From: Patescibacteria group bacterium
GTDB lineage: Bacteria; Patescibacteriota; Minisyncoccia; Minisyncoccales; Staskawiczbacteraceae
Length of the DNA stretch: 47,557 nucleotides
Direction of reading: 5' to 3'
NCBI GenBank assembly: GCA_018829965.1
Contig: JAHJTG010000005.1
Span: 1 to 47,557, forward strand
Of this stretch, positions 84-31,870 are shown piece by piece; the stretch's first letter is position 1; each line of letters opens with the position of its first letter. The notes beneath the pieces were generated by a model, which saw only the letters and a program-made list of their open reading frames with translations, was not told where the DNA came from and did not search any database. The position numbers and the translations under genes are program-made.

Positions 84-126
84 TTTTTTATCTTATCAAA
101 GAACCACCTCAATTGAAAGGTGGTTC
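84..126 (-). terminator. Cassette hairpin repeat, copy 1 (terminator plus extended -10 TGATAAGAT)
   Basis: GAACCACCT-caattgaa-AGGTGGTTC stem-loop; near-identical copies at 2100, 29607 and 31838. Confidence 0.75.
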
Positions 127-143
127 TTGACACGACTTGATGA

Positions 144-170
144 CTCCGCGGATGGGACGATTTTCGAACT
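144..170. repeat. att-like junction containing the tRNA-Asn 3' end fragment
   Basis: CTCCGCGG-atg-GGAC aligns with CTCCGCGG-cca-GGAC at 23117-23131; reads LRGWDDFRT in frame with ORF 171..359. Confidence 0.75.
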
Positions 171-251
171 TTGAGATGGGTGGATTTTATTGAAAAACCT
201 GAAAAGTTATTAGATAATGCTAAGATTGTTCTGACACAAATAACCTTAAGT

Positions 252-1220
252 TCAGACTTCACTAATCACGTCAAATCCTTTAAAACTACCGGTGATAGAT
301 ATCCCTATAACATTTTTTGCAATTTTTTTATCTTTCACTTGTTTGGCTACCTGATTTAAGGTTGCCCCGGAACCTACGGCATCATCAATAAGAAGTAAAT
401 TGTTATATTTACCACTTTCTGTTAGGACTAAAGTCTTTCCCGCATTTTCAATACGATCTTCCAATTTTGATAGAGTTTTCTGCGGAACAATGATCTCCGT
501 TTTAATTTTCTCAATTTTAATACTCTTAACATTAAGATTGAGTTGCTTTTCAAGCTCACGAATAAATTGAACCTCTCTCTTTACTGTCCAAGGTATAAAA
601 CCGACTGCATCGATACGGAACTTTTTAATCAACGAATCAATTTTAGGTTTTATCTCTGCAACTATTTGTTTAATTATTACCTTATTCCCACTTTGTTTAC
701 CATAAAGAAGAAGCTGTCCAAGCCTTGTCTTACCAAATCTTTCTATACTATAAAAATCTAAGTAGAATATTTTATCAATATACACCCTACTGAATGTACT
801 ATTAAATTTTTGCAACCCGTCAATCAAACCGCCCCTCTTAAATTTATCGTATTTATTTAAAACTTTTATATATTCATCCGCAGTTTTACTAACGTCTAGA
901 TTATTTTTATTGCACCAGTAATTAAAACCAGCGAATCCATCTTTTTTTTCTCCGCTAGGAGTAATAATGAGGTAGTTCTTTTCAATTATTTCCTTTCTCT
1001 TTTTATTTATGACTACATCTTCCTTTTCTTCTACTGAGCTTTTCAATAAATAAAAAACCTTAGGGGGTCTTCCAATCTTATCTATTTCCCCATTTCTTAA
1101 AAGATTCGCTAATTGTTTTCTTACAGCACGATTACCTATTCCTAAATAATTCGATAACTCACTTCCAGTCACCCTATTTTTTTCTTTTAAATATTTCTTT
1201 ATTTTAATACTTGTTTTCAT
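252..1220 (-). CDS. Winged-HTH plus ComF-like phosphoribosyltransferase domain protein
   Basis: N-terminal HTH (VTGSELSNYLGIGNRAVRKQL); PRPP-binding motif LLIDDAVGSGATL. Confidence 0.75.
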   Translation of the reverse strand: MKTSIKIKKYLKEKNRVTGSELSNYLGIGNRAVRKQLANLLRNGEIDKIGRPPKVFYLLKSSVEEKEDVVINKKRKEIIEKNYLIITPSGEKKDGFAGFNYWCNKNNLDVSKTADEYIKVLNKYDKFKRGGLIDGLQKFNSTFSRVYIDKIFYLDFYSIERFGKTRLGQLLLYGKQSGNKVIIKQIVAEIKPKIDSLIKKFRIDAVGFIPWTVKREVQFIRELEKQLNLNVKSIKIEKIKTEIIVPQKTLSKLEDRIENAGKTLVLTESGKYNNLLLIDDAVGSGATLNQVAKQVKDKKIAKNVIGISITGSFKGFDVISEV

Positions 1221-1317
1221 GGCTCTACTATAACATAAAAGGTTCCTAGTTCCTATTTTATTAGGAACTTTTTATATTAGGGGGATTTAAATTAAGAAAT
1301 CTATTTCTAGAAATTAG

Positions 1318-1344
1318 CTCTGCATCGTGGACGTTGTTGGAACT
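1318..1344. repeat. Degenerate att-like junction
   Basis: CTC TGC ATC GTG GAC GTT GTT GGA ACT has the same spacing as the 144 and 31884 sites (CTC-N8-GGAC-N7-GAAC). Confidence 0.55.
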
Positions 1345-1372
1345 AGGATAAGAGAGAAGGAGGAGTTTGTGC

Positions 1373-2071
1373 CTATCCCTTGTCTACCCCCTCCGGCTTC
1401 CCTTTTTCATAACCGGAATCGGCATCTCTAATATATTCCGAATATTCCTCAAATAGTTTTTGGCTGTTCATTCTTACTACTTCTGCCCATTTTTGAGCGG
1501 TTTTAATTTCTTCCCGCCAATTCTCTTTTGACACCCTAAACATAATGAAGGGATAAAAATCGCTCTGCTTAACGTCTGCTGGCAGCTCCCAACGCATAAA
1601 ACTATGCTCCATTGGTCTTACATACACCCTCACCGCTGTTTCCGGATAACCATATGCTTTGCCAAATTCAATTTGATTTTTTGCTTGCAAAATATTTTTA
1701 AGACTTTGTTCATCTTTGCCGATGGCAAAATCTTTTACTTCCCTTCTTTCTCCTTGTTCGGCGTTGTCAGTAGACGTCTGCACATCCGTACGTACCCTTT
1801 TCTTTTTATAAGGCAAGCTCAAGACAGATAAAAGATCTTCAACCGATTTTACATCTTCCTCCCTAAGGTGCTTTTTTTCTTTCCCTTGCGACCACCATTC
1901 TCCACCAACAGTAATATCTGTGACGGGCTTGTCTCCTGTTTTTAAAAGCAGGAGTCCTACCTTCTCGTCCACATATATTGAGGCGGCTTCTATTTTTTCA
2001 ACGGTTTCTTTGTCTAATATTTCTGGCCCGTTTTCTTGGGATGATGTAAATTTTTCAATTGATTCTGTCAT
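1373..2071 (-). CDS. Hypothetical protein (single-gene cassette)
   Basis: 232-aa ORF with FGKAYGYPETAV motif, bounded by att-like sites at 1318 and 2142. Confidence 0.7.
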   Translation of the reverse strand: MTESIEKFTSSQENGPEILDKETVEKIEAASIYVDEKVGLLLLKTGDKPVTDITVGGEWWSQGKEKKHLREEDVKSVEDLLSVLSLPYKKKRVRTDVQTSTDNAEQGERREVKDFAIGKDEQSLKNILQAKNQIEFGKAYGYPETAVRVYVRPMEHSFMRWELPADVKQSDFYPFIMFRVSKENWREEIKTAQKWAEVVRMNSQKLFEEYSEYIRDADSGYEKGKPEGVDKG

Positions 2072-2099
2072 AATTCTAATTAATTTAATTATTCCATCG

Positions 2100-2133
2100 T
2101 ATCAAAAAACCACCTCAGTTAAAAGGTAGTTTT
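2100..2133 (-). terminator. Cassette hairpin repeat, copy 2
   Basis: TATCAAAAAACCACCTCAGTTAAAAGGTAGTTTT. Confidence 0.7.
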
Positions 2134-7487: not shown

Positions 7488-9026
7488 ATGCTTACTAAAA
7501 GAAGAAAAGAAGTCTTGGACTTCATAAAAAAATATAAGGCTAAGAAAAAATATGCTCCCTCGCTTGAGGAAATACGGAAGCATTTTCGGCTTGCCTCCGT
7601 CTCAACCGCCCATTTTCATGTAAAGAAATTACAAGAAGACGGCTATCTGCAAAAAGAATACAATCAACCACGAGGCATTGATGTAATCAAACGCGATGAA
7701 ATAATAAAAATTCCAATAATGGGAACTATTACTGCGGGCCAACCGATTGAAGCAATAGAAGTCCCAGATTCAATGGTCGCAATTTCTAAAAAAGAAATAA
7801 CTGCGAACCAAAAACATTATGCTTTACGGGTCCGAGGCGATAGCATGATCAATGATGGTATATTTGATGGCGATGTTGTTGTAATTCGCAAGCAAGAGAC
7901 CGCCGACGATGGCCAAACAGTCGTAGCAATTATTGATGATAATGAGGCTACTCTCAAAAAAATTTACACAGAAAAATCGCGCATTAGATTACAACCAGCA
8001 AATCAAGAAATGTTGCCTTTCTACCGAAAAGAAGTAGAGGTGCGAGGTGTTGTAGTCAAAATCATAAGAAATTTAGAAAATGGCACCCAGGATAATACAC
8101 TCGCTTATAAGAAAAAAGTCTTTTTGGATCGCATAAAAAGCTCTAACCCCAAAAGTCAAAATAAATATAAAAGGGTTGTCCTTTCCCCTATTAGATATGC
8201 CGGGGGGAAAACTTTAGCAGTTGGGCATGTTATTGAATTATTGCCCGATAATACAAAAAGAGTTGTTTCACCTTTCTTCGGCGGTGGTTCAATTGAAATA
8301 GCTATGAGCAAAGAGTTAGATTTAGAAGTAATCGGTTATGACATTTTTGATATTCTTTGCAATTATTGGAAATTTCAAATAGAAAAACCAGAACTTCTTT
8401 ATAATAAATTAAAGGAATTAAAACCAAACAAAAAAACCTTTGAAAAAATAAGGTTAATTTTAAACGATGTGTGGAAGAAAAAGATTAAGTTAGACCCGCT
8501 AACACTCGCAGTTTATTATGTCTATAACTTTAATCTCTCCTATGGTCCCGGATTTATGGGCTGGTCGTCTGAGATTTACTTGGATGATAAAAGATACAAA
8601 AGAATGATAGAAAACATTCGGGATTTTAACCCCAAAAATCTAAGGGTGGAATGTGCGGACTTTCAAGAAGTAATTAAAAATCATCCTAATGACTTTCTAT
8701 ATTGCGACCCTCCATATTATATCGGAAAAGACTCAAAAATGTTTAAAGGGATCTATCCGATGAGAAATATACCTGTTCATCACAACGGATTCCCACATGA
8801 AGCCCTAAGAGATCTATTAAAAAATCATAAAGGCGGTTTTGTGCTTTCTTATAATAATTGCCCAACAATAAGAGAATATTATAAAGATTTCCAGCAATTC
8901 TTCCCCAGTTGGCAATATACAATGGGCCAAGGAGAAACAAGAATTGGCTTAAATAGAAAAAATGGCAACGGTAGCCATGTAAAAGAATCTCATGAGATAA
9001 TTGTTTTTGGTCCGCCTAAAAAATAG
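7488..9026 (+). CDS. LexA repressor fused to a Dam/D12-class N6-adenine DNA methyltransferase
   Basis: LexA HTH (YAPSLEEI...SVSTAHFHV), Ala-Gly site (TAGQP), GDSM and TLKK catalytic motifs; then YAGGK, SPFFGGGS, DPPY. Confidence 0.9.
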   Translation: MLTKRRKEVLDFIKKYKAKKKYAPSLEEIRKHFRLASVSTAHFHVKKLQEDGYLQKEYNQPRGIDVIKRDEIIKIPIMGTITAGQPIEAIEVPDSMVAISKKEITANQKHYALRVRGDSMINDGIFDGDVVVIRKQETADDGQTVVAIIDDNEATLKKIYTEKSRIRLQPANQEMLPFYRKEVEVRGVVVKIIRNLENGTQDNTLAYKKKVFLDRIKSSNPKSQNKYKRVVLSPIRYAGGKTLAVGHVIELLPDNTKRVVSPFFGGGSIEIAMSKELDLEVIGYDIFDILCNYWKFQIEKPELLYNKLKELKPNKKTFEKIRLILNDVWKKKIKLDPLTLAVYYVYNFNLSYGPGFMGWSSEIYLDDKRYKRMIENIRDFNPKNLRVECADFQEVIKNHPNDFLYCDPPYYIGKDSKMFKGIYPMRNIPVHHNGFPHEALRDLLKNHKGGFVLSYNNCPTIREYYKDFQQFFPSWQYTMGQGETRIGLNRKNGNGSHVKESHEIIVFGPPKK

Positions 9027-11790: not shown

Positions 11791-12294
11791 ATGCCTAAAT
11801 TGAAGCGCTTAACTGAATATCACAAAAGAGCGATGGAGCTGAAATATAAAGGTAATTCTTATCAAGAAATTGCCGATTTTCTCAATGAAAAGTTTAAAAA
11901 AAGTAGAAAAACAAAAAGCGGCCTTTCTTTTACAGAACAGACCATCAAGGATTGGTTTAAGGAATCCGGCACGCTCTGCGAGGATCATCGCCTCTATGAG
12001 GAAGAAATGGATGAAATTCACAAAGAGACAATAGATGTAATCCGTAAAGCCGGCATCCAGATTCGAGAACAAAACTTTCGCTTAGCCAACGAAATGCTGA
12101 TCGCCCTAATGGGAAGCGATAATGACAGCATCAAGCTCGCCGCAATTAAAGAATTGCTAAATCGAGTGGAAGGCCAACCAAGACAATTTTTGGATGTCAA
12201 AAAAGACGAGGAGGGACTTCTTGTTTATGAATCAATTATTAGAAAGATTGAACAAGAAAAAGAAGAACAAGAACAAACTGGAAAACAAGAATAA
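11791..12294 (+). CDS. HTH protein, terminase small subunit-like
   Basis: N-terminal HTH (GNSYQEIADFL); C-terminal IKLAAIKELLNRVEGQPRQ. Confidence 0.5.
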   Translation: MPKLKRLTEYHKRAMELKYKGNSYQEIADFLNEKFKKSRKTKSGLSFTEQTIKDWFKESGTLCEDHRLYEEEMDEIHKETIDVIRKAGIQIREQNFRLANEMLIALMGSDNDSIKLAAIKELLNRVEGQPRQFLDVKKDEEGLLVYESIIRKIEQEKEEQEQTGKQE

Positions 12295-12362
12295 CCAGCT
12301 GTGGGTAACTCGCTTGGCTTGTGCCAAGGGTAAGCACATAATGGGGGTTGCCAAAAAACAAT

Positions 12363-20434: not shown

Positions 20435-21643
20435 ATGTCAAAAGAGCTTAGTATATCAAAAAAGCTAAATCTATTTAACGAAAGAGATTTTTCTCATATA
20501 AAAACTCAGGGCATAAAATATGCTGGGTCTAAGTTAAAGATAATTCCCTATATTTTAGAAAGCATAAAAGACTTAGAGATTAAAACGATTTTAGACGGAT
20601 TTAGTGGGTCAACCAGAGTAAGCCAAGCATTGGCTCAAGCAGGTTATAATGTTGTTTCCAATGATACTGCTTGCTGGTCTGAAGTATGTGCAAAATGTTT
20701 TTTGTTGAGTAAGAAAGATAAAAAATACTATCAAAATATACTTGATGAACTCAATTCTCTAAAAGGACGTAATGGCTGGTTCACCAAACATTACGGCGGA
20801 GACAAAGCAATGAAAGTAAAAATGCCCTTTCAAATAAAAAACACAAGGAAATTAGATGCTATAAGAGACAGAATTGACGAACTAAAATTAAATGATATTG
20901 ACAAGTCTGTTGTTCTAACAAGTTTGCTGTTTGCGTTAGACGCAGTAGATAGCACACTTGGACACTTCGTATCATATCTCTCTAAGTGGTCTAAGCGTTC
21001 CCATAATGATTTAATGCTTAAAGTCCCCGAATTAAAAAAAACTAACGGCAAACACAAGGTTCTTAGAGAAGACATTTTTGATGTGATAAAAAATAATACT
21101 TTTGACCTTGCGTATTTTGACCCTCCGTATGGGTCAAATAATGAAAAAATGCCTCCAAGTAGAGTAAGATATTCTTCCTATTATCATATTTGGACATCTG
21201 TTGTTAAAAATGACAAACCAACTCTATTTGGAAAAGTGAACCGAAGAGAGGATACGAGGGATTTAATTTCAGCCTCCATATTTGAAGAATTTAGAAAAAA
21301 CGAAAGCGGAAATTTTATTGCAATGGAAGCAATAAAAAGAATGGTTCAAGAGACTAAGGCAAGGTATATTTTACTTTCTTATAGCTCTGGAGGAAGGGCG
21401 ACTAAAAAAGAACTTGAGCAGATTTTTGAAGGAACGGGAAAAATTCTTAAAATTATTGAGATAGACTACAAAAAAAATATTATGGCAACTATGAGTTGGA
21501 CGAATGAGTGGATAAACTCAGATGGAGAACATAAAGAATACCTCTTCTTAATGGAAAAATCCGCAAATAAGTGCAATGCCCTCACGGAAAATAATAAACG
21601 AAAAGTTCTACTTGATAACATCACCCCGCCCTTAACAGCATAA
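20435..21643 (+). CDS. D12-class N6-adenine DNA methyltransferase
   Basis: YAGSK, DGFSGS and DPPY motifs. Confidence 0.9.
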   Translation: MSKELSISKKLNLFNERDFSHIKTQGIKYAGSKLKIIPYILESIKDLEIKTILDGFSGSTRVSQALAQAGYNVVSNDTACWSEVCAKCFLLSKKDKKYYQNILDELNSLKGRNGWFTKHYGGDKAMKVKMPFQIKNTRKLDAIRDRIDELKLNDIDKSVVLTSLLFALDAVDSTLGHFVSYLSKWSKRSHNDLMLKVPELKKTNGKHKVLREDIFDVIKNNTFDLAYFDPPYGSNNEKMPPSRVRYSSYYHIWTSVVKNDKPTLFGKVNRREDTRDLISASIFEEFRKNESGNFIAMEAIKRMVQETKARYILLSYSSGGRATKKELEQIFEGTGKILKIIEIDYKKNIMATMSWTNEWINSDGEHKEYLFLMEKSANKCNALTENNKRKVLLDNITPPLTA

Positions 21644-21646
21644 AAT

Positions 21647-23155
21647 ATGAAAGCAGTAATACTCGCAAGAGTTTCAACAACAAGGCAAGAAGAGGAGGGG
21701 CACTCGCTCCCCGCTCAAATAAGGAGGTTGCAGGAATACGCAAAGAAAAAAGGCTTTGAAATAGCCGAGACTTTTTCTTTTTCTGAAAGTGCGGGAGGCA
21801 AAATTAGAAAGAAATTTGAAGAAGTTATGACCTATATCAAAACTCATAAAGATGTTAAAGTTTTGCTTTGCGAGAATGTTGACCGAGCGACAAGGAACTT
21901 TAAGGACGCTGTTGATTTAGACGAAATGAGAAAAAACGAGGGTTTAGAAATTCATTTCGTCCAAGACGGATTTTTCATAAATAAAAATGCTACTGGCAAC
22001 CAAATGTTTATGTGGGAGGCAAAGGTATTTATTGCCAAGCAATACTTAAACCGATTATCTGATGATGTCAAAAGAAGCAACGAGCAGAAGCTACAAAATG
22101 GCGAATGGATAAACAAGCCCCCGATAGGATACATTGGCACGATAGACCCTAAGGGCAACAAAGGAATGATACCAGACCCGTTAAAAAGCCACCTTGTCGT
22201 TAAAATCTTTGAAATCTATGCTACTGGGAGCTCCTCAATTCTAAAGATTAAAGAAACAATGGACGCTCTGGGTTTAAGAGGCAATACAAGGGACAATAAG
22301 CCCCTCTGTAAGAGCCAAATACACTATATCCTTAATAATCCCTATTACTACGGCTTAATGCGTGTTAACGGGCAATTATACGAACATAAATATGAACCCT
22401 TAATAACCAAACAACTTTTTGATAGAGTGCAGGAAGTATTTAGTGGTTATGATAAAAAACCTTTCAGATATGGTTGTAAGCCTTTTGTATTTAGGGCTAT
22501 GGTAAGATGTTCAGAGTGCGGGTGCTTGATTGGCGGAGAGCTTAAAAAAGGACACTATGTTTATTATTCTTGCAATAATTATAAGAAAGTCCACAAGCAA
22601 AGGGTTTATGTTAAAGAGATTGATATGCTTGAACCAGTTCGCAGGGTTTTAGAAAAGATAAAATTAACAGACCAACAAAAAAACGAACTGATAGAAGATT
22701 TTAAGAAATCAGACAAAAGTAAGAATAAGTTTGTAAGTGCCAAGCTCCCAGAGCTAACGGCAGAGTTTGATTTATACGAAACGAGAAAAAGCGAAACTTG
22801 GAATAAATATGTGGATAAGGAAATAAGTAAGGAGATGTATGACAAAAAATACAAAGAATATGACGACAAGCAGAACGCTATAAAAACCCAAATGGGAAAA
22901 TTCCAAGTAGCTGATGTAGAATTTTACACAACAATAAATATGATTGTGGCTCTCTCTCAAAGAGCCGAAGAAATCTTTGAAAGTTCTGAACCTCACGAGA
23001 AAAGGGCTTTTGCCAATTTCTTACTTCAGAACTGCCAATTAGAAGGCGAAAAGCTGAAATTTGAACTTAAAAGCCCCTTTGACGGGGCTTTATCTGCACA
23101 CGACTGTTCTAACTTGCTCCGCGGCCAGGACTCGAACCTGGAACCTTCTCGTTAA
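21647..23155 (+). CDS. Large serine recombinase whose 3' end overlaps tRNA-Asn
   Basis: ARVST, DRATR, CSEC...YYSC; final codons LRGQDSNLEPSR are antisense tRNA sequence. Confidence 0.93.
   Translation: MKAVILARVSTTRQEEEGHSLPAQIRRLQEYAKKKGFEIAETFSFSESAGGKIRKKFEEVMTYIKTHKDVKVLLCENVDRATRNFKDAVDLDEMRKNEGLEIHFVQDGFFINKNATGNQMFMWEAKVFIAKQYLNRLSDDVKRSNEQKLQNGEWINKPPIGYIGTIDPKGNKGMIPDPLKSHLVVKIFEIYATGSSSILKIKETMDALGLRGNTRDNKPLCKSQIHYILNNPYYYGLMRVNGQLYEHKYEPLITKQLFDRVQEVFSGYDKKPFRYGCKPFVFRAMVRCSECGCLIGGELKKGHYVYYSCNNYKKVHKQRVYVKEIDMLEPVRRVLEKIKLTDQQKNELIEDFKKSDKSKNKFVSAKLPELTAEFDLYETRKSETWNKYVDKEISKEMYDKKYKEYDDKQNAIKTQMGKFQVADVEFYTTINMIVALSQRAEEIFESSEPHEKRAFANFLLQNCQLEGEKLKFELKSPFDGALSAHDCSNLLRGQDSNLEPSR
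23070..23091 (-). terminator. Probable tRNA-Asn terminator encoded inside the LSR gene
   Basis: AAAGCCCC-tttgac-GGGGCTTT, 25 nt past the tRNA 3' end. Confidence 0.6.
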
Positions 23156-23188
23156 CAGCGAGTTGCACTACCATTGTGCTACCGCGGA
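23117..23188 (-). tRNA. tRNA-Asn(GTT)
   Basis: TCCGCGG/CCGCGGA acceptor stem, CT-GTT-AA anticodon loop, GGTTCGAGTCC T-arm; CCA not encoded. Confidence 0.97.
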
Positions 23189-23264
23189 ATAATTATTTTT
23201 ATATAAATAAATTATTTACTGGTTATAATATAACCATTGCTAAGAAACAAATCAAGAAAAACCT

Positions 23265-23396
23265 TTAAAAAAACGAGAAGAAAGAAATTACTAAAATAAC
23301 TACAACAGTCACAACGAGCAAAATTATCCAAAAGGAATTATTTCTCTCTGGCGGATTTTCCTTTTTTTCTTCTTCGTATGATAGTATATTGTTCAT
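23265..23396 (-). CDS. Small single-pass membrane protein (43 aa)
   Basis: MNNILSYEEEKKENPPERNNSFWIILLVVTVVVILVISFFSFF. Confidence 0.4.
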   Translation of the reverse strand: MNNILSYEEEKKENPPERNNSFWIILLVVTVVVILVISFFSFF

Positions 23397-23462
23397 ATTT
23401 TTAATTGATTAAACTATAAAAATACGACCTTTATATACTTACTACCTACTATTTTCTACTTT

Positions 23463-24914
23463 CTAATAGTAATCCTTCACCTTCTTTAATTCATCGTGCT
23501 TTCTTAGTTTTTCAAGAGATTTTGCCTGAATCTGACGAATTCTCTCGCGAGTTACACCGAAGTCAACGCCAGTTTCTTCAAGGGTGTGCATAATACCATC
23601 TTCTAAACCAAATCTCATTGCTAAAATTTTTAATTCTCTCGGGCTTAATTCGCTCGAAAGTTCTTTTAATCGTCTCTTCAAAAGTTTATGAGCAGCCTCC
23701 ATTGATGGCGAAAGAGCCTTGTCGTCTTTAATAAATTCGGCTAAAACGCTCTCCTGTTTATCCTTGTCCTCGCCTACTGGCGTTTCTAAAGATACTGCCT
23801 TTTGAGCAATCTTTTTTATATGATGAACTTTATCAACTTCCAAGCCCATTTCAGATGCAACTTCCTCCGCTAAAGGTTCTCTGCCTAATTCCTGCAAAAG
23901 ATTTTTCCTGACTTTAGTATACTTTGAAATCGTCTCAATCATGTGAACGGGAATTCTAATAGTTCTTGCCTGGTCTGCTAAAGCGCGGGTAATTGCCTGT
24001 CTTATCCACCAAGTAGCATAAGTTGAAAACTTATAGCCTCTCCTCCAATCAAATTTTTTGACTGCCTTAAACAGACCCAAATTTCCTTCCTGAATTAAAT
24101 CAAGCATGGTTAAATTCGGGGACCTGCCGACATATTTTTTGGCGATAGAAACCACTAACCTTAAATTGGCTAAAGCCAGCCTGTTTTTTGCTTCTTCATC
24201 CCCTTTTTCTATCCTTTTAGATAATTCTTTTTCTTCTCTGGCAGTTAAAAAACTTACCTTCCCTATTTCCTTTAAATACATTTGGATAGGGTCAATTTTA
24301 CCTCCAATAAGTATTTTTTTCTTTTTCTCTTTCTTGCCTATTTTTGTTTTAATCTCTAAAAATTCTCGTGATTCTTTAATTTCAACGCCGTTTTCCTGTA
24401 AGGTTTCGTAGATTCTTTCCAACTCTTGGATGTTCTGCTCTATATCGGGGAAAGTATATAAAATTTCAGAGGTGGTAACAAAGCCTCTTTCACGCCCTTT
24501 TCTTACAATATTTTCTATCTGTTCTGGCGTTGCAACTATTTTTTTCCTCTTTACTACTATTTTCTGCTTTTTTACTTTTCTTTTTTTGCGCTTCTTTACT
24601 AACTTGCGAATCCTCTTTTTAATAATCTTTTTCTTCCCGCCTGCACCGCTTGTGGCGAAGCCACTACGGGCAGGTTTCTTTTTTAAAACCTTCGCTTTGC
24701 GGGATTTAACACGACGAATTTTTTTCTTTACCGACCTACGAGCTCTTTTTTTAGCGACTTTTTTCTTTTTCTTCTTTGCCAGTTTGCGAACCGTTTTTTT
24801 AATGGTTTTCCCGCCTGCATCGCTATGCCAGCCAGCAGTAGATACAGCGTTTCTGGCGGGCGAAGCATTGCGGGCAAGTTTCTTTTTTCGACGACTAATT
24901 ATTTTTTTCTTCAT
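23463..24914 (-). CDS. rpoD: Primary RNA polymerase sigma-70 factor with a Lys/Arg-rich N-terminal extension
   Basis: [37 protein letters not shown] and VTRERIRQI; downstream of dnaG. Confidence 0.95.
24636..24674. repeat. In-frame GC-rich palindromic element in rpoD ([13 protein letters not shown])
   Basis: CCCGCCTGCA...CGGGCAGG, 39 nt. Confidence 0.7.
24810..24878. repeat. Nested in-frame palindromic elements in rpoD
   Basis: 36-nt outer copy (LARNAS|HSDAGG) interrupted by a 33-nt inner copy at 24828-24860 ([11 protein letters not shown]). Confidence 0.7.
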
Positions 24915-24919
24915 AGCAT

Positions 24920-26746
24920 TTAAAGCTCTTTTGTTAATTTATTGAATTGTTCCATTAAATTATTAATTTTTCCAGAATCTTTTTCTGATTCTGCGAGCTT
25001 AATCTGGGCAGAGAGAGCTTTCAATTTATCCTTAACTTCGATGGATTTTAACCCTAAAAGACAAAGTTGAATTTCTTCTTCTACATCTTCATCATATTCC
25101 ACCTCTGCTCTTAAAGAAAGCACCCCAAGAAAATCCTTCAATTCTTCATCAGAGTCTGACTTGTTATATTTTACCGATAAATTATCAATAACCTCTTTTA
25201 AGTCTTTTTTATTGTTTTCTTTATCCCCTAATGATAATTTTTCTTGCTTTAATTTTTCTAAAATGTTCTTTATTTTTTCTGAAAAAAGAGGCAGATGCTG
25301 AATATCAATTAGATTTAAACTATCAGGCTCTTTCAGAATTAAAGATATTATTTTTTCTTCAAGTATTTTTTTTCTGCTAATAGGTTCAGAAAATTCTTTA
25401 ACTATTTTGCTTTTTTCTTCTACCCCCCTAACTAATTCTTGTAAAAAACTTTGTTCAACCTTTACTTTCTTTAATTCTTCTAAAACATCTTGGTCCTTTA
25501 CCGATAAAACTGTTGCCAATTTTTGGACCCAAAACGATTGCTCAATTTTATTTGGTATCTTTTTAATCACAGGCAATACTATTTTCCCAATTTCTTTCTT
25601 TCCTTCGGGCGTATTTTTATCGTATTTTGTAGTTGCAGAATCAAAATAAAAATCTAATATTGAACGCGCCCCAATTAAAGATTTCCCCCACCCTTTCGGG
25701 TCTTTTAATATAACGTCGGCTGGGTCAGAATCAGCTTCGGTCTGTTTTATAATTTTAATATTAAAACCTGCTTCTTGGGCCAAACCAATCCCTCTTTTTG
25801 TTGCGCTATCTCCGGCAACATCCATATCAAAAGCCAAAAGCAGATTCTCGGTGTATCGTTTTAAAATAATAAGGTGAGAAGAGGTTAAAGCTGTGCCCGA
25901 AACAGCAATTGTATTTTCAAACCCTGCCTGATGAGCCATAATTGTATCCGTGTAGCCCTCTGTAACTACGCAACAATTTTCTTTTCTTGCTGCTAATTTT
26001 GCAAAATTTAAACCATAGAGGGTATGGCTTTTATCATAAAGGAGAGTTTGAGGAGTATTAATATATTTTGCAACTTCTTCCTCCTCTGAAACTTTTTCAA
26101 AAACCCTAGCCCCAAACCCGATAACTTGGGAATTTAAATCAAAGACAGGGAATATAATTCTACCGCGGAACCTATCATAAAAGTTTTGTTTGTTTTCAGA
26201 TTTTATTGCCAAACCAGCTTTTTCTATTTCTTCCCTTTGATAACCTTTACCAACTAAAAAATCTGAGAGACCCTGCCAAGTGTTTGGTGAATACCCCAAA
26301 CGCCATTTTTTTATTGTTTCTGCTTTTATTCCTCTGTTTAAAAGATATTCCTGCGCTTTTTTCCCACCTGTGCTCCCATCAAGTTGTTTTTCAAAAAAAT
26401 TACAGGATGATTCGCAAATTTCATAAAGACGTTCTCTGGCAGTTGTTAATTGTGGGTCTTGACGCTTCAATTCTACCCCAGCTTTTTGAGCTAAAATCCG
26501 CAAAGCATCTCCGAATTCAACTCCTTCAATTTTCATTATAAAGTCAAAGATACTACTACCCTCTCCACATCCAAAACAATGCCACATCTGACGAGCCGGC
26601 GAAACAAAAAAAGAGGGTTTTTTTTCTGAATGAAATGGACAAACGCCCCTATAGTTGGCTCCAGTTTTCTTTAGCTTTACATAACTGCCAACTACTTCTA
26701 CTACGTCTAATTTATTTTTAATTTCTTCTATTTGAGAGGTGAACAT
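24920..26746 (-). CDS. dnaG: DNA primase
   Basis: [11 protein letters not shown]...WHCFGC zinc finger, [16 protein letters not shown] and EGYTD toprim; likely ATG start at 26746. Confidence 0.97.
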
Positions 26747-26810
26747 TAAAATTAATTTTACCACAAAATATTTAAAATTCAACCCATTCCACCTTATTTA
26801 ATAAAAACAT

Positions 26811-26838
26811 TTGACAGAACTTTTTATATTGTTATTAT
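26811..26838 (+). promoter_or_regulatory. Sigma-70 promoter with no downstream CDS
   Basis: TTGACA-N16-TATTAT with TG extension. Confidence 0.55.
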
Positions 26839-26900
26839 TATATTAATCTGAATTGTAATTTTAAAATTACGATTTATATATGATTTTGCTCTTTTATTCT

Positions 26901-27077
26901 TTAATCTGCTGAAAAACAAACTTAAATTAAGAACGATATTGTCACGATTGTAAGTATCGATTTACGATATACGTCAGATTATGATTGTGACAAAGGGTGA
27001 GCCGTAACTCAAAGTTTTGATTTCAGCTCACAAGGTTAAAACTGCGGTACATCGCCACGGCGTATCGCAGTTTTTTT
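26901..27077 (+). ncRNA. Structured ncRNA candidate (6S RNA-like rod with central bubble)
   Basis: 26908-26923 pairs with 27012-27027; 26939-26953 pairs with 26979-26993; terminator at 27038-27077. Confidence 0.45.
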
Positions 27078-27125
27078 ATTCTAAAAAAACCAGACTGTTA
27101 AGTCTGGCTTTTTAGTTTCGTCTTA

Positions 27126-27575
27126 TTAATTCGCTTTCTTTATTTCTTCTGCCAACTTCTTTAATTCTGAAATATCTGCTTGAGGTCCTAATTGAGTAGA
27201 AATATATCCTATATATTTATCAAAGAATATCCTGTCTTTTGCCCATGTTTCTTGAAATTTTTCTTCTAATCCATATAAAGGATAAAGCTTAAGATGAACA
27301 TGATTCACGCCCATTCCCTCTAACACCATAGCAACTCTTTTTACGCTTAATCCTTTTTCTAAAATCTTGGCAACTTTTTTAGATGCCTGCATTAATTCTT
27401 GATAAGCATCGTCTGACATATCAAAAGCATAAGAATCATAATGCTCCTTAGGCATAACCAAAGTCATGCCGCGAGTATTGGGATTAACATCTAAAATCGC
27501 TAGAAAATCTTGGTCTTCCCAAATTTTTTCAGAATCAATTTCCCCTTTTGCTATTTTACAAAATATGCAGTCCAT
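27126..27575 (-). CDS. HIT family hydrolase
   Basis: MDCIFCKI; VNHVHLKL histidine-triad variant. Confidence 0.9.
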   Translation of the reverse strand: MDCIFCKIAKGEIDSEKIWEDQDFLAILDVNPNTRGMTLVMPKEHYDSYAFDMSDDAYQELMQASKKVAKILEKGLSVKRVAMVLEGMGVNHVHLKLYPLYGLEEKFQETWAKDRIFFDKYIGYISTQLGPQADISELKKLAEEIKKAN

Positions 27576-27576
27576 T

Positions 27577-28338
27577 TTATTTTACACGGTAAATAAGGAT
27601 TACCGTTGAATCAACTTCTTGCTGTCCAGATTGTATTTGTGGAGTAGGAACAACGCCTCCTCCTAACTGCGCAACTTCGCTCTTGTATACTGAATCGTAA
27701 TAACGTGGAGAATAACTATCCTGAACATTTATCAGTTTGCCTAATTTTATTCCAGAGGACTTAGCAATATCTTCTGCTTTTTGTTTTGCCTTTTTTATAG
27801 CTTGTATTCTTGCTTCCTGTTGCGCTTTTTCCAGGTATTCAATAGAAAAACTAATATTGCCGATTAAATTTGTCCCCCTATCGTTTGCTTTAGCTAAAAC
27901 ATCTCCTATTTTTGTAAAATCTCTTATTGATACCAGAATTGTATTGGTTAATTTATAACCAATAAATATCTGACCCTTATCTTCTGTCCAATTGTATTGA
28001 GGAGCTAAATTATATTGGGTTGTCTTGATGTCTTTTTCATCAATCCCCAGCCCCTTTATATCCCCGATTAGCCCATTCATCGCTTCCGTATTCTTCTTAA
28101 TGATATCCTGTATGTCTTTTCCCTCGTTGACCATACTCAAATCTATTGTCGCTAAATCAGGAATGACATAGACTTTTCCCTCTCCGGAAACTGACAGTTC
28201 TTGAGGCGTGTTCCCCGGAATGGTTTTAAACTTATACACTAATCCGCCAATAACTGATAAAACCACGATCAAAATAATAACTACTGCTAAATTGAATAAA
28301 CGATTTGATAATTCTATTTTTTTTGTTTCTTCTTCCAT
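27577..28338 (-). CDS. SIMPL/DUF541 domain protein
   Basis: N-terminal TM; VSGEGKV..PD.A and AI..AK.KA..IA...G..LG motifs. Confidence 0.9.
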   Translation of the reverse strand: MEEETKKIELSNRLFNLAVVIILIVVLSVIGGLVYKFKTIPGNTPQELSVSGEGKVYVIPDLATIDLSMVNEGKDIQDIIKKNTEAMNGLIGDIKGLGIDEKDIKTTQYNLAPQYNWTEDKGQIFIGYKLTNTILVSIRDFTKIGDVLAKANDRGTNLIGNISFSIEYLEKAQQEARIQAIKKAKQKAEDIAKSSGIKLGKLINVQDSYSPRYYDSVYKSEVAQLGGGVVPTPQIQSGQQEVDSTVILIYRVK

Positions 28339-28417
28339 TGTATTTTCTTGCCCGCCTCAATATAAAAGCTTTGGGGCGAGTAAATTTGATTATTAATTTT
28401 AAGCGACCTTTTTTAAA

Positions 28418-29566
28418 TTAATTAGTAGTTGGCGTTAAGATTTTCTTATACAAGGCAATCGTTTTCTCAATCATAACATCAGACCTAAATTGTTCCGCAG
28501 TTTCTTTCGCATTCAAAGATAAACGGCGCCGTAAAACAGCGTCTTTAATCAAAAGGCTTATCTTTTCCTCGGCCTCAGCAAGGGTGCGAACAATAAACCC
28601 ATTTTCTCCATCGCGAATAATCTCAGGAGCTACACCGACAGGAAAACTAATGGGAACCAAACGCTGTGACATTGCTTCAATCAAGCTTAAAGAAAATCCC
28701 TCATAGCGAGAAGTTAAAAGAACAACCCCTCCCGCATATCTGTTAAGCATATCGGGGATAGTATCTTTAACCGCATTTACAATAACGGAATGATTTGGAA
28801 TATTGTCTTTCATCCATCGAGTTAATTTTTTATTCCGCGACATTAACACCGAAAATTTATCAACTTCTGGAAACTTCTCAAAAAGACATATAAGACGATC
28901 AACTCCTTTCAATTTTAGCGTAAATGAGTCTTCCCCAATTCTACCTAAGAAAATAAGGGATGGCTTATTATTAAAATCTGCATCTAGGGTTTCAAACCAA
29001 TAATCCTCTATTGCATTATGAATAACTTCAATTTTCTCAATTGCGATACCTACTCCAACAAGATCATCTTTCACTATATTAGACGTAGCTATAACATAAT
29101 TTGTATGTTCTGCTGCATATTTTTCAATGGAAGCAATATCATTTAACGGACGACGTGTCTTTATATTAAGCTCACGAATCGCACCAGATTGTTTTAAACG
29201 GAGAAAAACATCATTACATTCCTTCTCTAAAAGACCTGTTTTCGGAACAGCTCGTAGAAAACCTGTGGTGGTTGAACCAAAATGCGACACTACTGGTTTA
29301 GAAAAACGAAGAAAAGCAAGTGGCGTATAAGTTGTTCCTTGAATAATATCGTGACGCAATACTTCGTCACGTCTTTCTAATAGAGAATAGAAGAAAAGAA
29401 TATTGTTAATACCTTTGAAATGAGTAGGAGTATCATTGAGTAAGAATTGCGGGTAGAAATTATTCACCTCTACTTCTTTCTCTCTCAATTTACCGGCGAT
29501 AAGATCGTTAATAAAGTGGGCACCGGAACCTATCTTTTTATCACTATGAATAAATGCTATTTTCAT
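28418..29566 (-). CDS. Glycosyltransferase family 4 (cassette gene)
   Basis: TSRYEGFSLSLIEAM and EIIRDGENG; true start probably MKIAFIH at 29566. Confidence 0.9.
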   Translation of the reverse strand: MKIAFIHSDKKIGSGAHFINDLIAGKLREKEVEVNNFYPQFLLNDTPTHFKGINNILFFYSLLERRDEVLRHDIIQGTTYTPLAFLRFSKPVVSHFGSTTTGFLRAVPKTGLLEKECNDVFLRLKQSGAIRELNIKTRRPLNDIASIEKYAAEHTNYVIATSNIVKDDLVGVGIAIEKIEVIHNAIEDYWFETLDADFNNKPSLIFLGRIGEDSFTLKLKGVDRLICLFEKFPEVDKFSVLMSRNKKLTRWMKDNIPNHSVIVNAVKDTIPDMLNRYAGGVVLLTSRYEGFSLSLIEAMSQRLVPISFPVGVAPEIIRDGENGFIVRTLAEAEEKISLLIKDAVLRRRLSLNAKETAEQFRSDVMIEKTIALYKKILTPTTN

Positions 29567-29606
29567 AAATTTACTACGTGATGAATAGCCTAGGACCTCT
29601 TTCTTA

Positions 29607-29649
29607 TTTTTTATCTTATCAAAAAACCACCTCAATTAAAAGGCTGGTG
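29607..29649 (-). terminator. Cassette hairpin repeat, copy 3
   Basis: TTTTTTATCTTATCAAAAAACCACCTCAATTAAAAGG, nearly identical to 84-120. Confidence 0.75.
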
Positions 29650-29701
29650 AGGTGGGACGTCCGCCAAAGGACGGATCTCGCCTAAGGCGGAAACTTAAAA
29701 C
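29642..29701. repeat. att-like repeat with a 32-bp palindromic insertion (29660-29691)
   Basis: GTGGGACG[TCCGCCAAAGGACGGATCTCGCCTAAGGCGGA]AACTTAAAAC. Confidence 0.8.
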
Positions 29702-29723
29702 TTTTACCATAAAATCGTGTCCG

Positions 29724-30692
29724 TTATTTTAAAAAGTCTTCTACTTTTTGCCTTGCTTCAGACGAATTTTTGACTTTCATAAGACTCTCTCTAAGATCTT
29801 TAGCGCCTTTAAATCCCTTTGCATATTCATGGAAATGTTTTTTCATGCTATCAAACTGCTTACAACAGCCATCTTTTCCAATATCTTTTTTATAAAAATC
29901 GTCAAAAATTTCAGCGTGTTCAATAATAGCATTCAGTCGTTCTAAAATAGACGGGTAATGTCCGGAAAAAAACCAAGGATTTCCTAAAACGCCTCTTCCG
30001 ATCATAATACCGTCTAATCCTGTTTTTTCTACTAATTGACGAGCTTCTGCAATCGACCTTACATCACCGTTTCCTAAAATTAACGTCTCGGGCGCATAGC
30101 GGTCCCTGAGCCTTACAATCTCCTCTGCTAATTCCCAATTGGCAGGAACCCTATACTTTTCATTCCTAGTACGAAAATGTACAGTCAATGCAGCGATATT
30201 TTCCTTAAGAAGGGTAGGAATCCATTCGTCAATTTGTTTCTTCGCATATCCAATGCGCGTTTTTACCGAAACAGGAAGTTTCCCCGCCTCTTTTTTTGTC
30301 GCCCTAATAATCTCTTTTGCTAAACCAGGGCTTTTAATTAATGCTGCACCCCCTCCCTTTTTTTCTATATCTCTATTGGGACAACCCATATTAATATCAA
30401 TGCCATCAAACCCAAGCCCTGCGATCATCTCCGCTGCTTTTTCAAACTGAAGAGGATTTGACCCAAAGACTTGAACGACTATGGGGTGTTCTGCTGGAAA
30501 AAACTTTAAAATTTTTAGGCAGTGTTCTCTACCCTTAGAAAACAAACCGTCTGTTGAGACAAATTCCGTCCAAAAAACACTAGGCCTGCCATATTTCAAA
30601 AACATCAACCGAAACGCTTCGTCAGTTATGCCTGACATAGGCGCCACAACCATAATCGGTTTTTTTAACTTTTTCCAAAAACCAAGTTTCAT
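29724..30692 (-). CDS. tRNA-dihydrouridine synthase (DusB-like; cassette gene)
   Basis: APMSGITD, DINMGCP, SVKTRIG, GNGDV and MIGRG motifs. Confidence 0.92.
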   Translation of the reverse strand: MKLGFWKKLKKPIMVVAPMSGITDEAFRLMFLKYGRPSVFWTEFVSTDGLFSKGREHCLKILKFFPAEHPIVVQVFGSNPLQFEKAAEMIAGLGFDGIDINMGCPNRDIEKKGGGAALIKSPGLAKEIIRATKKEAGKLPVSVKTRIGYAKKQIDEWIPTLLKENIAALTVHFRTRNEKYRVPANWELAEEIVRLRDRYAPETLILGNGDVRSIAEARQLVEKTGLDGIMIGRGVLGNPWFFSGHYPSILERLNAIIEHAEIFDDFYKKDIGKDGCCKQFDSMKKHFHEYAKGFKGAKDLRESLMKVKNSSEARQKVEDFLK

Positions 30693-30746
30693 AATTCTAA
30701 ACACTTTTTAAAAAAGAACGCCCAGTCTTTCAAATGGACGCTCAAC

Positions 30747-30808
30747 CAGCGGGCCAAGTGGGACGTCCGCCAAAGGACGGATCTCGCCCAAGGCGGAAAC
30801 TTGGAACC
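30747..30808. repeat. att-like repeat with a 32-bp palindromic insertion (30766-30797)
   Basis: CAGCGGGCCAAGTGGGACG[insert]AACTTGGAACC. Confidence 0.85.
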
Positions 30809-30836
30809 TTTTTCCTAAAATTCAAACTATCTGAGA

Positions 30837-31280
30837 CTATACAGAATAAAACTTATTAGACAAATAATTATTCAAAACTTCTTGAGATGGTTGAAAAATT
30901 GGTTTTGGCAAACTACTTAATTCAAACCAACGCCATTCAGTGATTTCATCTGGTTCTTTTATCTCTGGCTCGCCACTAAAATCTTCGCATAAAAATCCGA
31001 CAGTAATGAAATGGGCATCAGAAACAATATTATTAGACAAACTGATAACTTCCATTTTATTAACTTGCATCCCCGTTTCTTCTAAAACTTCCCTTTCCGC
31101 TCCCTGTTCAAAGGTTTCTCCAAAGTGGAGTTTTCCACCAGGCATAGTCCATGTTCCCTCACCATGCAAAGCGCTTGATGCTTTCTCTGGGTCATCATGC
31201 CTTTTTCCTAAAAGAATCTTTTTATCTTTTAGAAGCATAACTCCAAACCCAACACCTACTTTTTTATTTTGTTGATCCAT
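30837..31280 (-). CDS. Nudix hydrolase (cassette gene)
   Basis: Nudix box GGKLHFGETFEQGAEREVLEETG. Confidence 0.92.
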   Translation of the reverse strand: MDQQNKKVGVGFGVMLLKDKKILLGKRHDDPEKASSALHGEGTWTMPGGKLHFGETFEQGAEREVLEETGMQVNKMEVISLSNNIVSDAHFITVGFLCEDFSGEPEIKEPDEITEWRWFELSSLPKPIFQPSQEVLNNYLSNKFYSV

Positions 31281-31353
31281 ATAGTTTAATTTAAAAAATA
31301 ATAATTTGGTGGGGCTTCGTTATTATAACAATAAAATTTATAAATAATTCCTT

Positions 31354-31382
31354 AGTGGGGCAAGTGGGACGAACTTGGAACC
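31354..31382. repeat. att-like repeat
   Basis: AGTGGGGCAAGTGGGACGAACTTGGAACC. Confidence 0.85.
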
Positions 31383-31410
31383 TTTTTTCTAAAATCTTGC
31401 TCGGATAATT

Positions 31411-31827
31411 TTATTTCATATAATCCCTCATTTTTTTAACTATATCTTTAACTTCCAAAAATACCTCATCGTTAACCATGTTTTCCTTTGCGTGGTTAAT
31501 TATCGGCCTAATTGATTCAACTTTATTACCAAATTTATTCATCCATTCATATCTTGGAAAAATCCATAAGTGGAAACCATGTCGTGACCCTTCGTCTTGA
31601 TAAAGACAAACTGTTTTGATACCCAACACATCTTTCATCCCCTTTCTTAACTTCCTAGTTAAATAAAGAAATTCATTCGCTTCTTTTTCATCAAATTCAT
31701 CTAAAGATACTCTATTTTTTATTGAGGCAACAATAAAAAAACCGGGGATAGGAACTTCCCAATCTTGATGAATATCAAAATAATCAGTGACAATTATTTT
31801 TTCATTTGGAAAAAATTGTTCTTCCAT
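31411..31827 (-). CDS. HIT-like protein (cassette gene)
   Basis: QDWEVPIPGFFIV and HGFHLWIFPRY. Confidence 0.75.
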   Translation of the reverse strand: MEEQFFPNEKIIVTDYFDIHQDWEVPIPGFFIVASIKNRVSLDEFDEKEANEFLYLTRKLRKGMKDVLGIKTVCLYQDEGSRHGFHLWIFPRYEWMNKFGNKVESIRPIINHAKENMVNDEVFLEVKDIVKKMRDYMK

Positions 31828-31837
31828 ATTTCAATTC

Positions 31838-31870
31838 TATCAAAAAACCACCTCAATTAAAAGGTGGTTC
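31838..31870 (-). terminator. Cassette hairpin repeat, copy 4, abutting extended -10 TGATAGAAT
   Basis: TATCAAAAAACCACCTCAATTAAAAGGTGGTTC. Confidence 0.8.

Follow-up and report, generated by a model that had tools for sequence, protein, structure and literature searches.

Why should one small hairpin, joined to what appears to be a promoter, recur in front of unrelated genes? The question is raised by a stretch of 47,557 nucleotides (nt) from a groundwater-dwelling Patescibacteria group bacterium of the family Staskawiczbacteraceae (contig JAHJTG010000005.1 of assembly GCA_018829965.1), here called the window, in which a hairpin-forming 32-mer occurs four times beside sequences that resemble the 3' end of a tRNA. 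A sequence-only reading of this DNA had proposed that the hairpin is a standard end of gene cassettes. Bacteria of the Candidate Phyla Radiation (CPR) have tiny genomes with few recognised mobile elements, and the acquisition and shuffling of their accessory genes is poorly understood. The analysis described here makes it probable, though well short of certain, that the hairpin is the terminator-promoter front end of cassettes docked at tRNA genes.

Under this proposal a unit would begin at a tRNA gene or at an attachment-site-like (ATT) sequence, continue through a spacer, the hairpin with its promoter and one or more genes, and close with another ATT sequence; units would be stacked head to tail 3' of the tRNA. 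To judge from the sequence, the hairpin would stop read-through from the tRNA or the preceding unit, while an extended −10 element (TGnTAnnAT) fused to its T-tract would start transcription of the next gene, in some units giving a leaderless mRNA. Units with the same 5' module would have been inserted at the 3' end of a tRNA or ATT by site-specific recombination through a postulated enzyme, and such insertion is proposed as the reason why the hairpin is present in several copies. If this is correct, much of the flexible gene content of CPR bacteria would reside in self-expressing one-gene units behind tRNA genes, built to a simple portable architecture of insulator, promoter, gene and docking site. 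Hairpin and ATT would then provide a sequence handle on the accessory genome in CPR metagenome bins, would account for assembly breaks at these places, and would offer candidate minimal promoter and terminator parts for organisms beyond current engineering.

Anatomy of the hairpin module

A search of the window with the 32-mer, allowing up to three mismatches, gave four matches on the plus strand, at 94-125 and 2100-2131 (two mismatches each), 29617-29648 (three mismatches) and 31838-31869 (none), and no match in any of 100 dinucleotide shuffles of the window. The sequence-only reading had listed four occurrences, at 84, 2100, 29607 and 31838. Four copies are present, but only the last is exact, and positions 84 and 29607 lie 10 nt left of the 32-mer, within a 47-nt repeat family (D1) that spans the hairpin copies at 80-126, 2086-2132, 29603-29649 and 31824-31870.

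Read on the minus strand, the hairpin has an 8-bp stem (AACCACCT/AGGTGGTT) with four G-C pairs, an 8-nt loop (TTTAATTG) and a tract of four to six T residues, which runs into TGATAnnAT in all four window copies. The T-tract is TTTTTT in three copies and TTCTTT in one. Copies 1 to 4 read, in order, AACCACCTTTCAATTGAGGTGGTT-CTTTGATAAGAT, AACTACCTTTTAACTGAGGTGGTT-TTTTGATACGAT, (A)CCAGCCTTTTAATTGAGGTGGTT-TTTTGATAAGAT and AACCACCTTTTAATTGAGGTGGTT-TTTTGATAGAAT, and their −10 strings are TGATAAGAT, TGATACGAT, TGATAAGAT and TGATAGAAT. The three strings in which a U-tract had been said to pass straight into an extended −10 were all recovered on the minus strand.

In copy 1 (90-125) the stem-loop occupies 125-102 and is followed by the T-tract and by TGATAAGAT at 98-90. 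Copy 2 (2096-2131) has its stem-loop at 2131-2108 and TGATACGAT at 2104-2096, and copy 4 (31834-31869), the exact 32-mer, has its stem-loop at 31869-31846 and TGATAGAAT at 31842-31834. In copy 3 (29613-29648), where TGATAAGAT lies at 29621-29613, the 5' arm is replaced by the end of an ATT site, and the region folds through an alternative stem (CCACCUCA/UGAGGUGG). The hairpin regions of copies 1 and 4 are more stable than shuffled sequences, with fold z scores of −3.55 (for 85-225) and −2.94 respectively. A search of Rfam 15 with eight loci gave no match for the hairpin or the ATT sites at E values up to 1, and only the two tRNAs reach the gathering score in the window.

Two further elements of the earlier proposal held when the flanks were inspected. 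Each copy lies within 20 nt of an att-like site, the gaps on the minus strand being about 16, 9, 0 (an overlap) and 16 nt for copies 1 to 4, and each stands before an unrelated gene: an open reading frame (ORF) that starts at 42 on the minus strand and continues off the window edge, a gene for a 232-residue protein, a GT4 glycosyltransferase gene and a gene for a 138-residue protein.

Distribution of the hairpin

The genome studied (739,551 bases in 18 contigs) holds eight copies of the hairpin, seven of them distinct; the copy at C8:104, at the start of its contig, lies in the same 141-mer as window copy 1. A census of 79 genomes of the family, made with a 20-nt core and up to two mismatches, gave 114 matches in 27 genomes from seven of the 16 genera, with between 1 and 12 copies in each carrier; the reversed pattern, which served as control, gave a single match. 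The hairpin was not found in 16 genomes that represent 16 further families of the same order. Public data, scanned for exact matches to a degenerate pattern with one genome for each GTDB species, gave 54 copies at 53 loci, nearly all of them in records titled Candidatus Staskawiczbacteria and a few in Nealsonbacteria or Patescibacteria records. Four of the 54, in non-CPR records (L085, L116, L120 and L131), were dropped as chance matches, leaving 50 public copies. Two exact matches in IMG/VR viral contigs, which have 41-42% G+C and an unrelated context, were likewise judged to be due to chance. The hairpin motif is lineage-specific.

Predicted terminator and promoter signals

Base changes in the stem preserve pairing. 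Among the 50 public copies, the pair at stem positions 3 and 18 is A-T in 34, G-C in seven, G-T in six and A-C in three, against an expectation under independence of 2.6 for G-C and 7.4 for A-C, which indicates covariation. For six copies from the genome studied, folding of the 36 nt that precede the T-tract gives −10.4 to −15.2 kcal/mol.

Statistics on the sequence beyond the stem were drawn from 42 of the 54 public copies; loci with a G+C content above 0.40 were left out, which removed eight more copies, some of them from Staskawiczbacteria. At least four T residues fall within the first 6 nt past the stem in 38 of the 42. The extended −10 motif TGnTAnnnT occurs no more than 22 nt after the hairpin in 21 copies, compared with 2.4% of 20,000 random positions in the same loci, and the −35 motif TTGAC occurs in the same interval in seven (1.7% of random positions). 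One or the other is present in 28 copies, against a background of 4.1%. When all DNA examined is considered, 50 of 83 distinct hairpin copies have the −10. At the level of sequence, the reading of this region as a promoter is well supported.

The same motif also appears to be used elsewhere in the genome. Within 100 nt upstream of its 617 ORFs, the −10 motif is found 107 times in the sense and 35 times in the antisense orientation, and TGnTAnn[AG]T spikes at exactly 6 nt before the ATG, with 15 of the 617 ORFs at this distance and between none and five at neighbouring distances. This is the spacing expected of leaderless mRNAs, and it is on this ground that the element is argued to be a working promoter in this organism; the pattern suggests that leaderless mRNAs and leaderless translation may be widespread in the lineage. 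Among 46 hairpin copies with both a −10 and a downstream ORF, the ATG follows at exactly 6 nt in seven and at 6-8 nt in 11. Where ORFs are present on both sides of the hairpin (45 copies), the downstream gene is co-oriented with it in 40 and both neighbours are co-oriented in 31.

Hairpins behind tRNA genes

In six of the 50 public copies, a called tRNA (Asn, Arg, Asp twice, Lys and Gly) ends no more than 120 nt before the hairpin. Another 15 have a T-loop-like motif, GTTCNNA, 8-75 nt upstream, a motif present at 3.6% of random positions. Five of the seven distinct copies in the genome studied directly follow an ATT site or tRNA-like end; one more, at C16:119378, has no tRNA-like sequence directly upstream and is found 7.8 kb behind tRNA-Asp, among tRNA-Asp remnants. 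The association between hairpin and tRNA is strong, though not exclusive.

Arrays are seen in relatives. In genome G013, two tRNA-Met genes and a tRNA-Asp gene are followed on one strand by six hairpins and at least eight ATT sites over 12 kb, and the same Met-Met-Asp anchor is accompanied by three hairpins in G005. One-gene units consisting of tRNA, hairpin, ORF and ATT follow tRNA-Arg, tRNA-Asn, tRNA-Lys and tRNA-Glu in other genomes. Overall, the hairpin is found at the 5' edge of one- or two-gene units 3' of tRNA-Asp, Asn, Arg, Lys, Glu, Gly, Leu and Ser in several genera; the suggestion that one module serves more than one tRNA is borne out by these eight types. The cargo is of varied accessory function: NUDIX, CorA, a TrpRS/TyrRS-class synthetase, PfkB and TspO are among it, as are methyltransferases, a P-type ATPase and a set of ArsR with a permease.

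The window contains such an array, which is read on the minus strand from tRNA-Ser(GGA) at 33075-33159 (identified by tRNA calling and Rfam). Directly 3' of this anchor lies a terminator-like hairpin of a second recurrent type (AAAATCGCC-TTTT-GGCGATTTTT, 33046-33072). A near-identical module follows an ATT on contig C7, and this terminator type is common to a true tRNA-Ser flank and an ATT flank. There follow a gene of the FAD-dependent, geranylgeranyl-reductase family (32003-33028, from a family match), ATT(a) (31885-31925, repeat D12), copy 4, the 138-residue gene, which has no family match (31411-31827), ATT(b) (31354-31395, also repeat D12), after which comes TGTTATAAT without a hairpin, and a NUDIX hydrolase gene (30837-31280). 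The array continues with ATT(c) (30749-30821), a different hairpin with TTTAGAAT, a tRNA-dihydrouridine synthase gene (29724-30704), ATT(d) (29643-29715, repeat D3), copy 3 and the GT4 glycosyltransferase gene (28418-29566), whose start is the ATG at 29566 and not the TTG at 29635. ATT(d) carries a 31-nt GC-rich insert, the same as that of ATT(c), to which it is 85% identical. Genes for SIMPL, HIT, DnaG and RpoD proteins come next, and then tRNA-Asn. The NUDIX and dihydrouridine synthase genes, both assigned by family match, sit elsewhere in relatives. The ATG of the 138-residue gene lies 6 nt after the −10 of copy 4, and a leaderless mRNA is predicted for it.

The stretch that follows the tRNA-Asn island has copies 1 and 2 at its far end. 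Copy 2 is preceded on the minus strand by a degenerate site, ATT(f) (2141-2170, GCGGTTCTAAACTCGCGTATCACGGAGAGC), and is followed by the gene for the 232-residue protein (1373-2071), which has no family match. A further ATT of the type GGTTCCAACAAC..CACGATGCAGAGC (about 1317-1358), which was missing from the sequence-only reading, separates this gene from a cassette gene of 322 codons, matched to a helix-turn-helix (HTH)/phosphoribosyltransferase-like family (252-1220). Beyond it are ATT(e) (142-172, AAAGTTCGAAAATCGTCCCATCCGCGGAGTC), which resembles a tRNA 3' end and has the acceptor part of tRNA-Asn (CCGCGGAG), a spacer of the TCATCAAGTCGTGTCAAG type with TCAAG repeated at 10-nt spacing (126-141), and copy 1. 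All of these are on the minus strand. A second near-exact copy of the tRNA-Asn 3' end (24-mer) was not found in the window.

A free-standing LAGLIDADG endonuclease ORF (33160-34179, minus strand) ends one base before tRNA-Ser. The DNA covering this ORF and the tRNA is 78% identical in G013, and is absent in G001, G002, G005 and G022. A further LAGLIDADG ORF (L075:14690-15358) lies between tRNA-Met and tRNA-Asp in G013, G002 and G001. From their positions at tRNA-Ser and at tRNA-Met/tRNA-Asp, homing endonucleases adjoin the tRNAs that anchor arrays.

ATT sites and the edges of the units

The ATT sites look like part of a tRNA, namely its T-loop and the 3' strand of its acceptor. Several types exist, some with GC-rich inserts at one fixed place. 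An exact 18-mer of one type, that of ATT(e) (AAGTTCGAAAATCGTCCC), is common to three genera, and with up to two mismatches it is found in 11 of the 79 family genomes, from four genera. The junction at which tRNA-Asp passes into spacer and hairpin is nearly the same as that at which an Asp-type ATT does so. ATT sites are not plain displaced copies of the local tRNA; we infer that they are cassette-borne mimics of the tRNA 3' end which would act as recombination sites.

The same 31-nt GC-rich, hairpin-forming insert (TCCGCCTTRGGCGAGATCCGTCCTTTGGCGGA, minus strand) lies at the T-loop-like position of four ATT sites, at 29660-29692 and 30766-30798 in the window and at about 2575-2610 and 3480-3515 on C7. 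Other ATT sites, on C13 and C6 and in G013, have different inserts at the same T-loop-like place.

Two interpretations of tRNA-like ends were rejected. RNAalifold on nine type-II ATT sites gave only a weak consensus stem (−5.25 kcal/mol), which does not favour a structured RNA. The tRNA-like end on C8 is not part of a transfer-messenger RNA: ssrA lies at C3:128062-128483, and Rfam found nothing in C8:1-1620.

Where units begin and end can be read from four kinds of comparison. In G013, an insert of 1.27 kb with one ORF lies between two exact copies of tRNA-Ser positions 60-85 (26 nt), and the DNA past the distal copy has its homologue in the native flank of tRNA-Ser in G001; the insert is bounded by a full tRNA and a partial 3' copy, as in islands that target tRNA genes.

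The second comparison is provided by the assembly of the genome studied, which was made with k = 141 and in which contig ends share exact 141-mers. At one fork, C3 and C8 have a common spacer, hairpin and gene start, identical to base 141, and split exactly where the tRNA-like end begins. At another, C6 and C13 have in common a gene end and an ATT, with a few substitutions and a 59-nt indel, and are wholly different right after the ATT, one path leading into a spacer and hairpin and the other into a different terminator. These forks could reflect strain heterogeneity or duplicated units. The 59-nt difference is a palindromic insertion in C6, just upstream of the fork.

Thirdly, a backbone of M48, tRNA-Ser, a variable segment, SIMPL, HIT, DnaG and RpoD is conserved in G002, G005, G013 and G022, and for no ORF between tRNA-Ser and SIMPL is there a homologous ORF in the arrays of the other genomes that were compared. 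Finally, G002 contains a homologue, 79% identical, of the HTH gene at 252-1220; an ATT lies on both sides of the gene in both genomes, and the neighbours differ. This gene is present in only four of the 79 family genomes, and in genus g6 it occurs in ordinary contexts with no ATT or hairpin. Together, the G013 repeat, the forks, the variable backbone segment and the HTH gene put the edge of the unit at the ATT 3' end, which makes the hairpin part of the unit's 5' end, in agreement with the sequence-only reading.

An empty-site comparison at tRNA-Glu between the genome studied and G001 was abandoned, the contexts being too different. Joints in contigs assembled from sequencing runs, from 24880 to 31833 and from 30821 to 33046, have 29-32 letters on one side, are indistinguishable from repeat artefacts and were not used. 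The arrangement across copy 3 is also present in a run from another study.

Candidate recombinases

The best lead for a recombinase that would act in trans is a family of large serine recombinases. Their genes adjoin or run into anchor tRNAs at several places: in the window, on contigs C8 and C14, and in genomes G002 and G013. In the window, the large serine recombinase ORF at 21647-23155 (plus strand) runs antisense through the terminator and 3' half of tRNA-Asn(GTT) (23116-23188, minus strand). It heads the tRNA-Asn island, whose other genes include those for a resolvase, a tyrosine recombinase and methyltransferases. A large serine recombinase gene is divergent from the array in G087 and G081. 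The antisense layout seen at tRNA-Asn recurs on C8 and C14, in both cases at tRNA-Gln, and a gene of this family lies just downstream of rpoD in G002 and in G013.

Other searches for the enzyme gave little. Matches to the tyrosine recombinase family PF00589 in the genome studied are limited to C16:7247-7729 and window 17444-18574, neither of which adjoins an array. An integrase at the tRNA-proximal end is found in the tRNA-Asn island only, and in neither the window tRNA-Ser array nor the tRNA-Asp arrays. Co-occurrence of the hairpin with the large serine recombinase domain PF07508 was tried as a pointer to the enzyme and gave no specific signal: the domain is present in 58 of the 79 family genomes, hairpin-free genera among them, the hairpin is present in 27, and G086 has six hairpins and no PF07508 match. 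The notion of a common chassis that captures different genes stands insofar as the same module precedes unrelated genes in arrays, but it goes too far in implying a capture mechanism, for which the searches above gave only candidate recombinases.

Weighing the explanations

Several observations weigh against the hairpin being a front end of tRNA-docked cassettes. In the genome studied, the hairpin does not come directly after any of the 41 called tRNAs, and only two of the approximately five junctions of the window tRNA-Ser array have the 32-mer hairpin, the others having other hairpins, among them the second recurrent type. Copies 1 and 2 are tied to tRNA-Asn, across a 23-kb composite island, by an 8-nt acceptor match alone. 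With the Rfam tRNA model the ATT sites give no match at E values up to 1, and the acceptor parts of ATT sites often differ from the neighbouring tRNA. No integrase family match was found among 51 array ORFs from five genomes. Over 20500-36500, contigs of four DNA runs are interrupted at the ATT(c)/(d) repeats and give no clear case of a presence/absence variant. As for transcription, the upstream ORF is on the other strand in nine of 45 copies, which leaves no protein gene to terminate there; a simple consensus scan called none of the four window hairpins terminator-like, a miss suspected to arise from a G-T extension of the stem that uses up the T-tract, and did not list the −10 elements, as it requires a −35. 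TTGATA itself admits two other readings, as a −35 or as one arm of an inverted repeat (TATCAAG...CTTGATA) on either side of the stem. Lastly, the hairpin copies share descent and their counts are not independent.

The most serious rival, which we regard as unlikely yet deserving of attention, holds that the hairpin is an ordinary terminator-promoter motif of the family with no special tie to cassettes, one frequent variant among others, its link to att-like sites being an effect of the many short independent genes near tRNAs. In compact genomes a terminator is often placed immediately before the next promoter, and the genome studied has 17 sites at which a stable hairpin is fused to TTTTGnTAnn[AT]T; fused hairpin-promoter junctions are a general design there, and only six of the 17 are the 32-mer hairpin. 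Different hairpins also occur at junctions of the same array. Hairpins at ordinary gene ends unlinked to att-like sites do exist: upstream of 29 of the 50 public copies there is no tRNA and no T-loop-like motif, and one of the seven distinct copies in the genome studied, at C3:140691, follows an ordinary gene. The idea of a standard cassette end must be narrowed to this extent, since the hairpin lies at the 5' edge of units stacked 3' of tRNAs but is not att-specific. Against a motif without any cassette tie, the T-loop-like motif is about ten times more frequent upstream of the hairpin than at random positions, with six further copies of the 50 directly after real tRNAs, and copies cluster behind the same anchor tRNAs in different genera. 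Nor would a plain terminator explain a loop that is near-invariant across genera while the stem shows compensatory changes.

It is less probable still that the hairpin is primarily part of the recombination site, as an accessory or arm-type protein-binding element, with a secondary role in transcription. Its constant short distance (0-27 nt) from the tRNA or ATT 3' end would fit such an element, as would the 10-nt period of the TCAAG repeats in the spacer, the inverted TATCAAG/CTTGATA around the stem, and the large serine recombinase genes within about 1.5 kb of hairpins in G087, G058 and G081. However, both forks and the G013 repeat put the crossover at the tRNA or ATT end, outside the hairpin; at many ATT junctions another hairpin is present or there is none, numerous hairpins lack an ATT, and G086 combines six hairpins with no PF07508 match. 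The spacers before the hairpin (window 126-141; L033, L075 and L101) often hold TCAAG or TCAAT two or three times at 10-nt spacing, and the inverted TATCAAG...CTTGATA brackets the stem in such a way that part of the −10 pairs with the spacer. These repeats and the inverted pair may form a protein-binding site.

A selfish miniature repeat, of the repetitive extragenic palindromic (REP) or miniature inverted-repeat transposable element type, spreading alone into intergenic DNA, is very improbable: the hairpin is a multi-copy palindrome restricted to one lineage, and another REP-like palindrome family lies in the genome beside an IS200-like Y1 transposase, but copies number only 1-12 per genome, have a fixed orientation to the downstream gene in 40 of 45 cases and a fixed register with the −10 and start codon, and show no terminal repeats or target duplications. 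There is equally little to commend an operator that would join the downstream genes in the regulon of a DNA-binding protein, with the hairpin as its palindromic binding site; although the loop and the flanking TATCAAG/CTTGATA are conserved and there is overlap with the promoter, the genes downstream have no function in common and the compensatory stem changes fit pairing rather than a fixed DNA sequence.

Relation to described systems

Both signals in the cassette front end proposed here are of known kinds, and the organisation of the units recalls, by analogy, integron arrays without an integrase. The module shares with an intrinsic terminator and an extended −10 promoter the G+C-rich stem-loop, the T-tract and TGn with TAnnnT in the absence of a good −35, and a subset has the ATG 6-8 nt further on, as in leaderless genes. 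It differs in that one hairpin, loop included, recurs 1-12 times per genome in seven of 16 genera in a fixed register, as read from sequence alone.

The closest described system is that of tRNA-anchored islands built by serial integration, such as the tycheposons of Prochlorococcus. These integrate at a few tRNA genes of a streamlined host and bring accessory metabolic cargo; later integrations push older ones inward with partial tRNAs between them, and both tyrosine and large serine recombinases take part (bioRxiv 10.1101/2020.12.28.424599). In contrast to tycheposons, the units described here mostly contain one or two genes, with no integrase or replication module, each unit has its own terminator-promoter, and the separators belong to a conserved tRNA-3'-like family rather than being plain copies of the local tRNA. 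The tandem islands linked to ssrA in Dehalococcoides likewise involve site-specific insertion at a small RNA gene of a streamlined genome (PMC3146451), although the islands of that account are multi-gene. No description of tRNA-anchored cassette arrays in CPR bacteria was found in the literature on CPR islands, cassettes, partial tRNAs and tycheposons, consulted mostly at the level of abstracts.

A more far-reaching version of the cassette proposal, which we offer tentatively and hold to be possible rather than probable, is a form of integron-like gene capture in Staskawiczbacteria-like CPR bacteria. Docking would take place at the 3' end of ordinary tRNA genes; each cassette would end in a conserved ATT mimic and have its own terminator and often leaderless promoter, the 32-mer being the commonest type, and the recombinase would be supplied in trans. 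Integrons comprise attI, attC and IntI, and hold head-to-tail, mostly single-gene cassettes at one platform with a common Pc promoter. The arrays described here resemble them in the stacking at one fixed platform of mostly single-gene units, each of which ends in a recombination-site-like element of variable length, and in the recombinase gene divergent from the array in G087 and G081. Unlike integrons, they have a tRNA gene as platform and cassettes with their own promoters instead of a common Pc, and no inverted-repeat architecture of the attC kind could be established in the ATT sites, among which ATT(a) alone has a long inverted pairing. An integron in the strict sense was rejected: to judge from the PF00589 matches in the genome studied and from a search of the 51 array ORFs of five genomes for integrase families, no IntI-type tyrosine recombinase lies next to any array.

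Palindromes of the REP and bacterial interspersed mosaic element type are repeated intergenic hairpins at gene ends. The hairpin differs from these in its low copy number, fixed orientation and fused promoter, and the REP-like family of this genome is another palindrome (D9).

Other features of the locus

The DNA between 9029 and 23155 resembles an integrated element: a resolvase and fragments of a split recombinase occupy 11791-14063, a tyrosine recombinase gene spans 17444-18574, and there are two Dam-like methyltransferases. Next to it, a single ORF (7488-9026, plus strand) joins a LexA DNA-binding domain, an S24 peptidase domain and a D12-class adenine methyltransferase domain. Upstream of the HTH gene (1221-1300, minus strand; also in L165) is a palindrome, GTTCCTAATAAAATAGGAACTAGGAAC, which is conserved with the homologue in genus g6 and is probably the operator of the HTH gene itself. 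A different palindrome, TTAACATTGGGACGTCATACGTCCCAATGTTAA, occurs three times in perfect or near-perfect form, at 45981-46008, 46517-46544 and 46824-46851, around and within the IS200-like Y1 transposase gene (46022-46753, minus strand), with more copies in the genome at C6:13010, C8:18437, C16:46890 and C16:234058. This palindrome and the Y1 transposase look like a pair of the REP and REP-associated tyrosine transposase (RAYT) type.

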